Below, in pieces: positions 53,904 through 58,516 of a stretch of 64,000 bases of DNA. Location: contig JBBALV010000004.1 in assembly GCA_040402815.1 (NCBI GenBank), positions 81,797 to 145,796 on the forward strand, in the 5' to 3' direction. This DNA is from Flavobacterium sp. (GTDB taxonomy: Bacteria; Bacteroidota; Bacteroidia; Flavobacteriales; Flavobacteriaceae). Made by a program: the position numbers and the translations under genes. Under the pieces are notes generated by a model. That model did no database searches and had not been told where the DNA came from. It saw only the letters and a list, made by a program, of their open reading frames with translations. The first letter of the stretch is position 1. Every line of letters starts with the position of its first letter.

Positions 53904-55250
53904 ATGTTTAAAAAAATATTAATTGCCAATAGGGGAGAAATTGCTTTACGCGTAATTCGAACTTGTAGAGAAATGGGCATCAAAACCGTAGCCGTTTACT
54001 CCACTGCAGATGCCGAAAGTTTACACGTAAAATTTGCTGACGAAGCCGTTTGTATTGGACCACCTCCAAGTAATTTATCTTACTTAAAAATGTCAAATAT
54101 CATTGCTGCTGCAGAAATTACAAATGCAGATGCTATTCACCCAGGTTATGGTTTTTTATCTGAAAACGCAAAATTTTCTAAAATATGTCAAGAACATGGA
54201 ATAAAATTTATTGGCGCTTCTCCTGAAATGATTGATAGAATGGGCGATAAAGCTTCGGCAAAAGCGACCATGATTGAAGCCGGAGTGCCTTGTGTTCCTG
54301 GTTCTGTTGGAATTTTAGAATCTTATGAACAGGCCGCTAGCATCGCTAAAGAATTTGGTTATCCTGTCATGCTTAAAGCAACCGCAGGTGGTGGAGGAAA
54401 AGGAATGCGTGCCGTTTGGAAGGAAGAAGATTTATTGAAAGCATGGGAAAGCGCTCGTCAAGAATCGGCTGCTGCTTTTGGAAACGATGGCATGTATTTA
54501 GAAAAATTAATTGAAGAACCACGCCATATTGAAATTCAAGTTGTTGGTGATGCTTACGGAAAAGCGTGTCATCTTTCAGAAAGAGATTGCTCGGTGCAAC
54601 GCCGTCATCAAAAATTGACAGAAGAAACTCCTTCACCATTTATGACGGATGAATTGCGTCAAAAAATGGGCGAAGCCGCTGTAAAAGCTGCCGAATATAT
54701 TAAATATGAAGGTGCTGGAACGGTAGAGTTTTTGGTGGACAAACACCGTAATTTCTACTTCATGGAAATGAATACCAGAATCCAAGTAGAGCATCCAATT
54801 ACTGAACAAGTGATTGACTATGATTTAATTCGGGAGCAAATTTTGGTAGCTGCTGGTGTGCCAATTTCAGGGAAAAACTATTTACCTCAATTGCACGCTA
54901 TCGAATGTCGTATTAATGCCGAAGACCCTTACAACGATTTCCGCCCTTCGCCAGGAAAAATCACTACTTTACATACGCCAGGAGGTCACGGAATTCGTTT
55001 AGACACTCATGTTTATTCCGGGTATTCCATTCCGCCGAATTACGACTCGATGATTGCTAAGTTGATTACGACAGCACAAACGCGACAAGAAGCTATCAAT
55101 AAAATGAAACGTGCGTTGGATGAATTTGTAATTGAAGGCATCAAAACAACTATTCCGTTCCATAGACAATTGATGGATGATCCACGCTATGTTGCGGGTG
55201 ATTATACTACCGCCTTTATGGATGATTTTAAAATGAATGAAATAGAGTAA
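53904..55250 (+). CDS. accC: Acetyl-CoA carboxylase biotin carboxylase
   Basis: [43 protein letters not shown]. Confidence 0.98.
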
Positions 55251-55269
55251 AAACTTGATTTATATTTAT

Positions 55270-55299
55270 AAAAACCTTGCAGTGATGCAAGGTTTTTTT
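55270..55299 (+). terminator. Intrinsic terminator after accC
   Basis: AAAAACCTTGCA-GTGA-TGCAAGGTTTTTTT. Confidence 0.85.
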
Positions 55300-55406
55300 A
55301 TGCATGAAAGTTTTGTACTTCAAATCCGTACATTACTTTTCGATCCCAAAAGTGTGGCAATAGCAAACCGTTCAAATTCGACAATAATAAACTTAAATAA
55401 TATCTA

Positions 55407-55414
55407 TATATTTG
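55407..55414 (+). promoter_or_regulatory. -7 promoter element of the MTase/nuclease operon
   Basis: TATATTTG, about 280 nt upstream of the MTase ATG, implying a long leader. Confidence 0.65.
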
Positions 55415-55491
55415 TAACACATAAAACAAAATGAAAAAAACAGAAACATAAAATTTTAAACATATCGTTGAGCTTTTAGCTCTTATTCTCA

Positions 55492-55689
55492 CAAATCAGA
55501 AACCTAGGAAATTTCTACATACGAATGAGAATAAGCCGCGAGAGTTCACGTCCATCTGGGCGTGGGCTGTTCGTGCTTATTTTTCGTATGGGCTCTCCTA
55601 GGTGCCTTGATTTGATTGTAGGCATTTTGGACAGTTTCATGCCCTTTTTTATGCTTATTAGTTTAAGAGCAAGCTTCGCTTTTAAACTA
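55492..55689 (+). ncRNA. Putative structured leader RNA (rod hairpin, weak terminator-like hairpin, ATG-proximal hairpin)
   Basis: Nested helices 55492-98/55608-14, 55502-09/55596-603, 55518-25/55583-90, 55529-36/55575-82 and 55543-53/55558-68 with several G:U pairs. GGCAT..ATGCC + U6 at 55621-55650. 12-bp stem 55659-70/55678-89. Confidence 0.55.
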
Positions 55690-55693
55690 AACT

Positions 55694-56683: not shown

Positions 56684-57771
56684 ACATAACACTTAAAGAA
56701 ATTTCGGTTAAGGAATTAATAAACGGTTATAAAGACAATAACGATGATGGCGTAGTGGGTTACGGAGGTCAATTAGACATTCGCCCACCTTACCAACGAG
56801 AATTTGTTTATGATATAAAAGAACGCAATGCGGTGATTAATACCTTGCAAAAGAACTTTCCGTTGAATGTGATGTATTGGGCGGTAAGAGATGCTTCGAC
56901 AAGTTCAGCACAAGAGCTGGAAGTTATTGATGGGCAGCAGCGCACCATTTCCATTTGTCAATACGTGAATGGCGATTATTCTATTGATGGTTTGGCTTTT
57001 CATAATTTACCTAAAGACAAGCAAGAGCAAATTTTGGATTACAAATTAATGGTGTATTTCTGTTCGGGAACCGATAGCGAGAAACTAGATTGGTTTGAAA
57101 CTATTAACATTGCCGGGAAAGTATTAACAGAACAAGAATTACGCAACGCAGTCTATTCAGGTTCGTGGGTGTCGGATGCCAAACGGTATTTTTCAAAAAA
57201 TTCTCGTCCAAAAATTGGCGATGAATATTTAAATGGTTCTGCCAACCGACAAGAATATTTAGAAAAAGCCATTGATTGGATTTCAGAAGGCAAGATAAAA
57301 GAATACATGTCAAAAAATCAATTGGAGCCCAACGCCAATGAACTGTGGCTGTATTTTCAATCGGTTATTAATTGGGTCAAAGTTACGTTTCCAAAGTACC
57401 GCAAAGAAATGAAAGGAATTGAATGGGGAACATTATACAACGAATTCAAAAACGATAAATGGGATGCTAAAGCATTAGAAGAAGAAATTACGGATTTAAT
57501 GTTAGACGAAGATGTGTCCAATAAAAAAGGGATTTACTATTTTGTTTTAAACCGAAAAGAAAGACATTTAAGTATTCGCACTTTTTCAGACAAACAAAAA
57601 CGAGAAGCCTTTGAGCGCCAAAAAGGAATTTGTGTGAAATGTGGCGAAAAATTTGAACTAAATGAAATGGAAGCCGACCACATTACCCCTTGGCACGAAG
57701 GCGGAAAAACAGCAGCAGATAATTGTCAAATGTTGTGCAAACATGATAATAGAATCAAGTCTGGGAAATAA
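56680..57771 (+). CDS. DUF262 (GmrSD/SspE N-terminal-like) domain + C-terminal HNH endonuclease
   Basis: PPYQREFVY, IDGQQR, FETINIAGK.L..QEL.NA. C-terminal CVKC...EADHITPWHEGG.T...NCQMLC..DN. ATGA overlap with the MTase stop. Confidence 0.88.
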   Translation: MNITLKEISVKELINGYKDNNDDGVVGYGGQLDIRPPYQREFVYDIKERNAVINTLQKNFPLNVMYWAVRDASTSSAQELEVIDGQQRTISICQYVNGDYSIDGLAFHNLPKDKQEQILDYKLMVYFCSGTDSEKLDWFETINIAGKVLTEQELRNAVYSGSWVSDAKRYFSKNSRPKIGDEYLNGSANRQEYLEKAIDWISEGKIKEYMSKNQLEPNANELWLYFQSVINWVKVTFPKYRKEMKGIEWGTLYNEFKNDKWDAKALEEEITDLMLDEDVSNKKGIYYFVLNRKERHLSIRTFSDKQKREAFERQKGICVKCGEKFELNEMEADHITPWHEGGKTAADNCQMLCKHDNRIKSGK

Positions 57772-58018
57772 CCAAATCACCGTTTATCCCAATCCTGCCA
57801 AAGACCACATCACGATTGATTGTGGAACTTTAGCAAATGTTGTAGGTTACCATATTGAAATAGTCAATACGCTAGGTCAGGTAGTTTTCAATCAACCAAT
57901 GAATACACAGCAATATAATGTAGCATTAAACTCTTGGAGTGGTACCGGCGTGTATTTGGTGAAGATTTACGATGCTTCAAACAATTTATTAAATACCAAA
58001 AAAATTATTTTGCAGTAA
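57764..58018 (+). pseudogene. Orphan T9SS type A C-terminal domain (5'-truncated gene fragment)
   Basis: NNQITVYPNPAKDHITID...IVNTLGQVVF...GVYLVKI...TKKIILQ*. The upstream part of ORF 57662-58018 is only a shadow frame of the HNH gene, with no signal peptide or cargo. Confidence 0.8.
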
Positions 58019-58054
58019 ATAAAAAGCAGCTTTTAATTTAAAGCACCGATAGTT

Positions 58055-58111
58055 TATTGCATTCCGTTCAATTACGACTCGATGACTGCAAAGTTGATTA
58101 CAATTGGGCAA
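58055..58111 (+). pseudogene. accC remnant 1 (codons ~374-392)
   Basis: YCIPFNYDSMTAKLITIGQ vs acc[20 protein letters not shown] (55023-55079). About 46/57 nt identical by hand count. Confidence 0.8.
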
Positions 58112-58205
58112 ATTTAACGCTATTTGTTTCGATAATTTCAAAACAAAGGCAACATAAAATCAATTGGTACGGAAGTTAAAATTCATTTATAGTGATGAAA
58201 TATTA

Positions 58206-58289
58206 AAAAGATGTACGGCTTTTAATTAAAAGCCGTACATCTTTTAGGTAATTGCCGTACATCTTTTGTGCAATTGCCGTACATCTTTT
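58206..58289. repeat. 40-bp perfect palindrome plus three 22-bp-period direct repeats
   Basis: Palindrome AAAAGATGTACGGCTTTTAATTAAAAGCCGTACATCTTTT (58206-58245). GCCGTACATCTTTT at 58232, 58254 and 58276. Confidence 0.92.
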
Positions 58290-58381
58290 TAAAATAAGAA
58301 CCCGACAAAATGATTTTTACTACCCTATCATCAATAAAATAGTTCCCTATTGTTGTAGTTATTGCTCTCTAAGTAACTTTT

Positions 58382-58516
58382 TTAGATGAATTTGTGATTG
58401 CAGGCATCAAAACAACTAGTCCATTTCACAGGCAATTGATGGATGATTCACGCTATATAGCAGGCGATTACACTACCGCTTTTATGGATGATTTTAAAAT
58501 GAATGATCCAAAATAA
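58382..58516 (+). pseudogene. accC remnant 2 (last 44 codons + stop)
   Basis: [44 protein letters not shown] vs accC 55116-55250. 115/135 nt identical by hand count. Confidence 0.92.

Follow-up and report, generated by a model that had tools for sequence, protein, structure and literature searches.

A restriction-modification islet behind accC in a freshwater Flavobacterium and its probable entry by homologous recombination with DNA of a related species

In Campbell-type insertion-duplication, as used in laboratory mutagenesis, a non-replicating circle with an internal fragment of a gene enters that gene, and RecA is the only enzyme needed. Islands that encode an integrase can restore the 3′ end of the protein gene they enter, as e14 and phage 21 do in icd, leaving icdC, and as SGI1 does in trmE. 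Gene-tail (C-terminal) displacement was reportedly treated by Jackson in 2009. [quoted passage not shown] For restriction-modification (R-M) genes, 'insertion with long target duplication' has been defined by an insert of <20 kb, a duplication of >30 bp and no other mobile element, and the repeats of cases given there are ∼93–100% identical (Furuta, Abe & Kobayashi 2010, PMC2853133). How small defence islets without mobility genes move is an open question. Here we describe an unusually readable natural case at the 3′ end of accC, the biotin carboxylase gene, in a 64,000-nt stretch of Flavobacterium sp. (the window; positions 81,797–145,796 of contig JBBALV010000004.1, assembly GCA_040402815.1), where intact accC is followed by a predicted type II R-M cassette and by an orphan second accC end. 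We consider it fairly likely that the host's own homologous recombination, acting on DNA of a related species and without an integrase, built the islet as an insertion-duplication. The process is known, as tail displacement or insertion-duplication; what is new is a natural variant with unusually clear switch points.

The window sits on a 146.7-kb contig of a freshwater Flavobacterium-like genome (G000; 2.69 Mb in 73 contigs, with type IX secretion system (T9SS) and gld genes). Comparison genomes are designated G003, G023 and so on, and two organisms known from metagenomes are designated Z and Y. In G000, accC is the last gene of the conserved rpmF-fabH-accB-accC block, and its protein is 97% identical in amino acids to that of the nearest species, G003. 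The features of the two accC ends are as follows.

53904–55250, + strand: accC (biotin carboxylase), intact, 448 aa, with full-length Pfam Biotin_carb_N, CPSase_L_D2 and Biotin_carb_C matches
55023–55251, + strand: live accC arm of 229 nt, from codon 374 to the stop, copied downstream (repeat families D5 and D1)
55215–55240, second copy 58481–58506, + strand: 26-nt run (TTTATGGATGATTTTAAAATGAATGA) that is the same in both accC copies, the longest identical run and candidate crossover point
55268–55300, + strand: terminator type A, 3′ of live accC, a hairpin plus T-run; also the accC terminator type of G003, G019, G006, G012 and G138
58055–58112, + strand: p1, decayed accC fragment, codons 374–393, 47 of 58 nt identical to live accC
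58382–58516, + strand: p2, the final 44 accC codons and stop; its body (to 58503) is like the Z allele with four non-synonymous decay changes
58521–58553, + strand: terminator type B, 3′ of the remnant; also the accC terminator type of G329, G126, G247, G117 and G015 (L021)

The downstream copy of the accC end is in two pieces. Positions 55116–55251 match 58382–58517 at 85% identity over 136 nt (E 8e-40 in a BLAST search of the genome against itself) and 55023–55080 match 58055–58112 (58 nt) at 81% (E 1e-9). The pieces are separated by 35 nt in live accC and by 269 nt in the remnant, and the repeat spacing, from 55023 to 58055, is 3032 bp. The downstream fragment has no 5′ part and the upstream gene is intact. 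A preliminary description of this DNA had reported the recurrence, its codon changes and the two terminators, and had regarded both ends as once-functional alleles, all of which holds. At 58382–58516, 115 of 135 nt are identical; of the codon changes, 10 are synonymous and 7 are not (E>A, I>S, P>S, V>I and the last three codons, p2 ending in NDPK* and the live gene in NEIE*), and each terminator type is a genuine accC terminator in other species of the genus. By the Nei-Gojobori method, 12 of the steps between the live end and p2 of G000 are synonymous and 8 are non-synonymous (pN/pS 0.15; neutrality rejected at P = 5e-5); for G023, the one other genome with a second accC end, the counts are 9 and 0 (pN/pS 0, P = 2e-7). 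On these ratios both ends are alleles that diverged while functional under purifying selection, and not a decayed local copy. They come from the same small clade, because GATGAT (in FMDDF) is common to both G000 copies and, among 41 other species, is found in the nearest one, G003, alone.

Between live accC and its remnant the order is terminator A, a degenerate array unit, a leader of ∼300 nt, methyltransferase, nuclease and T9SS remnant.

55316–55341, + strand: lone degenerate 22-bp array unit (CCGTACATTACTTTT; repeat family D4), which aligns with an array 5′ of the R-M genes in Flavobacterium sp. UBA6195
55393–55693, + strand: conserved R-M leader; its left edge, 55393–55411, is the start of homology with R-M loci of other families
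55694–56683, + strand: EcoRI-type N6-adenine DNA methyltransferase, 329 aa (PF13651, E 3e-132; PADLOC MTase_II)
56680–57771, + strand: full-length restriction nuclease of 363 aa that combines GmrSD_N (DUF262) with HNH (PF03235 and PF01844; PADLOC REase_II)
57766–58018, + strand: remnant of a gene for a T9SS-secreted protein, reduced to the C-terminal sorting domain and fused to the stop codon of the nuclease (Por_Secre_tail, E 5e-13)
58019–58054, no strand: spacer from the T9SS stop to the accC fragment, 100% identical in G023
58113–58381, no strand: array module inside the remnant, in place of 35 nt of accC, with a palindrome of 40 bp and three GCCGTACATCTTTT units at 22-bp intervals (58206–58290)

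Organism Z (runs X6/X7, contig depths 24–33) carries the R-M genes after accC with no duplicate end detected. It is another species, ∼75–85% identical to G000 over 44000–52067. Its identity to G000 is 89.5% in the accC body (53904–55018; 117 of 1115 positions differ) and 86% at 55023–55237, and then rises to 96% at 55238–55400, 97% at 55393–56231 and 95% at 56202–57825, past which Z becomes a different T9SS-tail subtype. The live accC of Z differs from p1 at 3 of 43 positions and from p2 at 9 of 123, four of the nine being the non-synonymous changes of p2, and Z has the normal 34 nt of accC where the remnant has the array module. Past 58503, Z reads ...GAAATAGAGTAA followed by terminator A, which is the live tail of G000. 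To the left of the 26-nt run Z agrees with p2 at 10 sites, and to the right of the run it has the bases of the live copy at all five tail sites. As aligned, this mosaic of Z, live gene and p2 is the reciprocal pattern expected of one crossover in the longest identical run. Three-way comparison of the first 122 nt of the arm, for which the Z sequence was reconstructed from the listed differences, gives 10 live-specific sites and 4 Z-specific sites, all synonymous, and 5 p2-specific sites. Because four of these five are non-synonymous, p2 appears to be a Z-like functional allele that decayed neutrally by ∼4%, a depth equal to the 3–5% divergence of the islet.

Organism Y (runs X5/X8) has on one contig the R-M genes (96%), the T9SS remnant, a different and shorter T9SS/p1 joint, and the array module and p2 body (90–91%). 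Its match to G000 ends at 58506; Y is a third host, whose tail and downstream DNA are its own. The islet is 95–97% identical between species with core genes at 80–90%, with switch points on short conserved runs, and judged by these matches it has been swapped among several freshwater Flavobacterium lineages.

For the direction of transfer, the form of the substrate (circle or linear) and the arm copy that is resident, we infer the following course. DNA of a Z-like related Flavobacterium would have been joined by a crossover inside the 26-nt run (55215–55240/58481–58506). The incoming DNA, of ∼3.0 kb, would have comprised accC from codon 374 through the stop, terminator A and the R-M cassette, to 36 nt past the T9SS stop, a unit equal to the 3032-bp repeat spacing. 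Entry could have been by one crossover of a ∼3.0-kb circle, or by two crossovers of linear DNA from a donor that was already islet-bearing; the product is the same. Live accC would keep the resident body, the donor having supplied no more of it than the last four codons (NEIE*), along with terminator A, and the donor arm (p1 and the p2 body) would be left downstream of the cargo as a dead fragment, joined to the resident's old tail (NDPK*), terminator B, the RCC1 gene that follows and the downstream DNA. Thus the replaced part of this essential gene is probably its last four codons and terminator only, and the decaying copy is probably mostly incoming arm, in which the displaced resident end survives just as tail and terminator. 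The preliminary description, in which the islet brought its own accC end and the displaced copy is decaying, is right about the two alleles, the recombination and the variable defence cargo, but, given the switch of Z in the last ∼45 nt of accC, it is probably mistaken about the identity of the incoming copy and about the extent of replacement in the essential gene. Its suggestion of entry by homologous recombination agrees with the two alleles, the switch points of Z and the missing integrase.

That absence, also noted in the preliminary description, was confirmed by a survey of open reading frames (ORFs) and Pfam domains, which found no integrase in 55251–58517 or in the G023 islet; serine recombinases and transposases were not searched by family. 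All matches to the PF00589 tyrosine recombinase profile in G000 and G023 are on other contigs or >40 kb away, and none is near the 22-bp arrays.

Later events would have shaped the right-hand side of the islet. A 22-bp-repeat module would have been inserted into the dead arm, once, since the geometry is the same in G000, G023 and Y. Cargo would have been exchanged with the accC end as left anchor and the T9SS sorting-domain tail as right anchor, and these anchors would explain why the right-hand scar is common to relatives with different cargo. Such further exchanges are indicated by the switch points at 57825 and 57985, by the other cargo of G023 and by the R-M genes of Z without a detected remnant. 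Crossovers inside the T9SS tail itself are suggested because Z switches subtype at 57825 and the subtypes of G000 and G023 differ left of 57985.

A second accC end is found in 2 of 401 genomes of the genus, G000 and G023. In G023, accC is followed by genes for Kelch-repeat and LamG-T9SS proteins, for a VapB-like antitoxin and for a PIN toxin, and then by a T9SS-tail remnant, p1, the array module, p2 and dxs. In G013, which has no islet, dxs directly follows accC. An inversion via dxs was considered for G000 and rejected, as its dxs, although on this contig, is at a distance of 88 kb and no remnant adjoins it. The stretch 57766–58517 is colinear between the window and G023, which has no R-M genes. 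Hence the scar is not specific to this R-M system, to which the preliminary description had tied it, since G023 has the dead copy and its neighbours with other cargo (Kelch, LamG-T9SS and VapBC); the cargo variation that it had proposed looking for downstream of accC is real. Identity between the window and G023 is 77–78% in the T9SS remnant, 100% at 57985–58086, 93–95% in the array module and 80% in p2. The background between the two genomes is 79–83%, with accC four-fold degenerate sites only 45% identical, and the 94–100% identity over 57985–58386 lies so far above it that the right-hand core was evidently exchanged recently. The p2 of G023 is of its own type (126/135 to its own live accC, 105–109/135 to either G000 copy). 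Its T9SS remnant is longer than in G000 and contains stops, and left of 57985 the two remnants are different tail subtypes, each like paralogues of its own genome. The switch point therefore differs among hosts, being the left edge of p2 in G023 and the 26-nt run in G000, Z and Y.

Within the G023 islet (L035, G023:C53, 3660–5950) the VapB-like/PIN pair lies between the live T9SS tail of the LamG protein and a dead, stop-containing 3′ copy of it, an arrangement that reads as a second, nested tail displacement within the accC islet. A 3′-end duplicate with almost no cargo is present in Flavobacterium sp. UBA6195 (L111, 1722–3395, minus strand), where a gene for a 263-aa protein with a zinc-ribbon-like CxxC motif has a second copy 184 nt downstream that lacks the first ∼40–50 codons.

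Several observations weigh against entry by insertion-duplication from a Z-like donor. The identity to Z is 86% for the live arm, 89.5% for the gene body (P about 0.08) and 92.8% for the remnant, so that either arm may be the resident one. With an arm this short and third-codon sites saturated across the genus, the ten discriminating sites were polarised with G003 and the rest of the genus; G003 agrees with p2/Z at five of them and with the live copy at two. An accC phylogeny with sliding-window identity over 41 species gave nucleotide identities saturated at 80–89% throughout, with closest relative and breakpoint not separable. Z shows no remnant and so is not the actual donor form, and both Z and Y are inferred from contigs joined by depth and overlap alone. 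G023, with its longer T9SS remnant and no R-M genes, needs extra recombination steps, and its sharp near-identity edge at the start of p2 also fits a site-specific junction. No empty or excised form (joint 55237 to 58504) was present in the Logan contigs of 12 runs, which drop rare variants.

A second version is that of the preliminary description, in which all of the replacement end, from 55023 or 55116 to the stop, came with the islet and p1–p2 are the resident's displaced, decaying end; in Campbell terms the crossover would then lie at the left edge of the arm. This would fit the live arm being slightly further from Z than the gene body is, the agreement of G003 with p2/Z at more sites than with the live arm, a contig of run X9 with a live-type arm contiguous with the R-M leader (96%), and G023, whose p2 adjoins dxs, like accC in island-free G013, and has the type of its own genome from the first bases on. 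However, it needs a donor with a non-Z arm on a Z-like islet and, in addition, a separate crossover in the 26-nt run in the Z lineage. Moreover, the remnant minus its four decay changes is ∼5% from Z and the gene body 10.5% (P about 0.01), and Y has p1, module and p2 body and diverges only past the 26-nt run, which is unexpected if p2 is each host's own. We judge this version to be rather unlikely, although a serious contender. A site-specific element that targets accC codon 403, with the gene end rebuilt and the integrase lost or supplied in trans, is improbable in our estimate, and equally so is its corollary that the T9SS tail end, p1 and module form an attR arm with the 22-bp repeats as sites for a recombinase or accessory protein. 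The high-identity edge between G000 and G023 does lie exactly at the start of p2, with iteron-like 22-bp arrays near it, and the R-M genes adjoin such an array in Flavobacterium sp. UBA6195. But G000 and Y switch at the 26-nt run and not at this edge, the left ends of the two islets are unrelated (arm 79%, terminators and cargo different), and no integrase or transposase was found in either islet or near the three arrays of G000, transposases not being searched by family. The second accC end is in just the two genus genomes, and the arrays lie mostly beside HU-like or XRE-like genes with no gene-end scars.

Duplication of the target by the arrival of the R-M genes themselves (the Nobusato/Furuta/Kobayashi class) would account for R and M genes between direct repeats of >30 bp with no other mobility gene, as that class is delimited in PMC2853133. 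It is nevertheless very improbable, as the same duplication is in G023 without R-M genes, the cassette edges at 55393 and 57771 lie 140 nt and 280–610 nt from the repeats, and repeats that are 85% identical with mainly synonymous differences are not a fresh duplication. Hardly any weight can be given to an in-place tandem duplication of the accC end with subsequent decay, or to an artefact of assembly or binning. The pN/pS values of 0.15 and 0 reject decay of a local copy, and the terminators differ. Logan contigs do break in the 22-bp array, which occurs at two other loci; yet two independent metagenomes of 2020 and 2024, each from its own study, yield contigs that match 53900–58235 and 58216–59900 with zero differences and break only inside this array, which is spanned by contigs in X3, X5 and X8, and in a third run a single contig covers 57959–58739. 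G023, another species that was separately assembled, has the same p1-module-p2 layout. Misassembly, part of the reservation attached to the preliminary description, is on these grounds excluded for practical purposes.

Set beside the systems already described, the locus resembles tail displacement in rhs, CDI and T6SS loci in its constant 5′ body, its new 3′ end with cargo, the orphan end downstream and the lack of a recombinase. It also shares with them serial nested events, as in G023 where the LamG-T9SS tail is displaced by VapBC, and the spread of finished arrays by homologous recombination. It differs in that accC encodes an essential housekeeping enzyme and not a polymorphic toxin, in that the two ends are near-synonymous alleles and not alternative domains, and in that both joints (accC end and T9SS tail) appear homologous, with a reciprocal mosaic that points to a single crossover. 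With Campbell integration it has in common the direct duplication of the arm around the insert, an insert equal to the 3032-bp spacing, reciprocal chimeras and one switch at the longest identical run. Unlike the laboratory procedure, this would be a natural event between species ∼10% diverged, with no circle or excised form observed, and the arm reaches the stop codon and leaves the gene intact. Formally the islet also belongs to the long-target-duplication class, having a type II R-M system, no mobility gene and long direct repeats overlapping the 3′ end of a gene, but its repeats are diverged alleles (85%) and the cassette edges do not abut them (PMC2853133). The link between R-M genes and duplication that is key to that class fails here, because the duplication occurs without R-M genes in G023 and the R-M genes without a detected duplicate in Z. 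Like e14, phage 21 and SGI1, the islet has a rebuilt target gene end and a pseudo-end at its far side; unlike them, it has no integrase and no identical core site, and its switch point varies by host.

The cargo is predicted to be a complete type II R-M cassette. The methyltransferase and nuclease genes overlap by 4 nt, are both full length and form one operon; residues 9–326 of the methyltransferase cover positions 1–344 of the 345 in the PF13651 profile, and the nuclease matches positions 1–363 of 372 in PADLOC REase_II. Homologues of the nuclease number 141, most of them full length and 53–95% identical, from Bacteroidota, candidate phyla, Proteobacteria, Chloroflexota and archaeal bins, and these matches agree with the mobile defence cassette recognised in the preliminary description. 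Nucleotide homology among the R-M loci spans 55393–55411 to the nuclease stop at 57771 with unrelated flanks, so the cassette itself includes no accC sequence. Direct repeats around the R-M genes were sought in 20 other loci; L138 has a short pair, L123 is a complex case, and the others have none. Gene-end repeats are thus not a general property of the cassette. In Flavobacterium sp. UBA6195 the cassette adjoins a 22-bp array downstream of a GH3-family gene, and at the matching locus on G000 contig C20 the array is present and the R-M genes are not. For the recognition site there is no solved close relative and no NCBIfam equivalog; GAATTC is weakly avoided, with an observed/expected ratio of 0.77, and is not among the most avoided palindromes.

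A leader of ∼235 nt in front of the methyltransferase gene (55459–55693, alignment A1) is kept across R-M loci of Flavobacteriaceae and Crocinitomicaceae, with long invariant runs and a hairpin with paired changes (CACGTCC...GGGCGTG versus CACACCA...TGGTGTG). This suggests a structured RNA or regulatory element; an Rfam scan of 55000–58700 gave sub-threshold chance hits only, with no match to the leader. The contigs of Z break at inverted repeats (CCCGTTGGGTGTAATT/AATTACACCCAACGGG) at window positions 55393–55400 and ∼56202–56231, in one case with an 8-nt overlap, a pattern suggestive of MITE or IS insertion both at the left cassette edge and within the methyltransferase gene.

On the right-hand side, the T9SS remnant has no N-terminal part; contig C3 carries a live paralogue whose tail is 84% identical to it. 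The GCCGTACATCTTTT arrays of 22-bp period are a dispersed family, often headed by one inverted unit that makes a palindrome, and the flanks of each array are conserved for ∼90 nt on the left and 35 nt on the right. There are three in G000 (window 58206–58290, C15:26299–26378 and C20:4597–4764) and at least 10 in G023 (L101–L110). In many cases an HU-like DNA-binding gene starts shortly downstream of the array or an XRE-like gene ends shortly upstream of it, and a Bacteroidetes −7 motif (TAnnTTTG) is often directed into the array. On G023 contigs C11 and C217 such a 22-bp-repeat module is flanked by two T9SS tail-end copies. Exact patterns of the spacer/p1 junction had no match in the JGI metagenome contigs scanned.

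Beyond the remnant lies one accessory gene.

58594–59966, + strand: gene for an RCC1-repeat T9SS-secreted protein (Pfam RCC1 and Por_Secre_tail)

Neither this gene nor the next 360 nt has a syntenic homologue in 8 relatives, and synteny returns at the PSP1 gene, at ∼60330; given this lack of synteny, the stretch from the accC stop to ∼60330 appears to be a rearranged accessory zone. In the relatives checked, a U32-peptidase-like gene, recognised by eye, is usually 5′ of PSP1. Run X10 contains a 98%-identical copy of 58512–58800 with unrelated sequence in front; for its 26-nt loose end upstream of 58512, and for other loose ends, no match was found among the sequences compared.

A genome-wide screen of G000 for a live 3′ end paired with a downstream fragment gave accC as the sole clear case, most nearby direct repeats being intergenic. 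Many intergenic pairs of 60–170 nt are present, 80–97% identical and 0.3–5 kb apart (C2:82096–83596, C6:24464–30722, C12:5419–6374, C24:12035–14005, C45:3484–8615 and window 19454–19961), including one around a small four-helix gene noted in the preliminary description. These pairs may be a separate class of cassette boundaries.

Since the arm reaches the stop codon, the conserved 3′ end of an essential gene can serve as a harmless address for recombination. The switch points at this locus are the end of such a gene and a secretion-signal tail, and the dead gene end is a molecular record of the crossover. We tentatively raise a further possibility, itself doubtful, that the islet is a recombinase-free, homology-addressed mobile unit that loops out via the accC-end repeats and re-enters a new accC by a single RecA crossover. 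The p1 fragment and array module would then hitch-hike as a scar, the T9SS sorting-domain tail would be a second portable arm for cargo swaps, and the differing scar joints (the left edge in G023, the 26-nt run in G000 and Y) would record at least two to three integrations. If excision and re-entry do carry the islet from host to host, defence genes in bacteria without obvious mobile-element machinery would have conserved gene ends as general landing pads, and dead gene ends could guide a systematic search for such islets.

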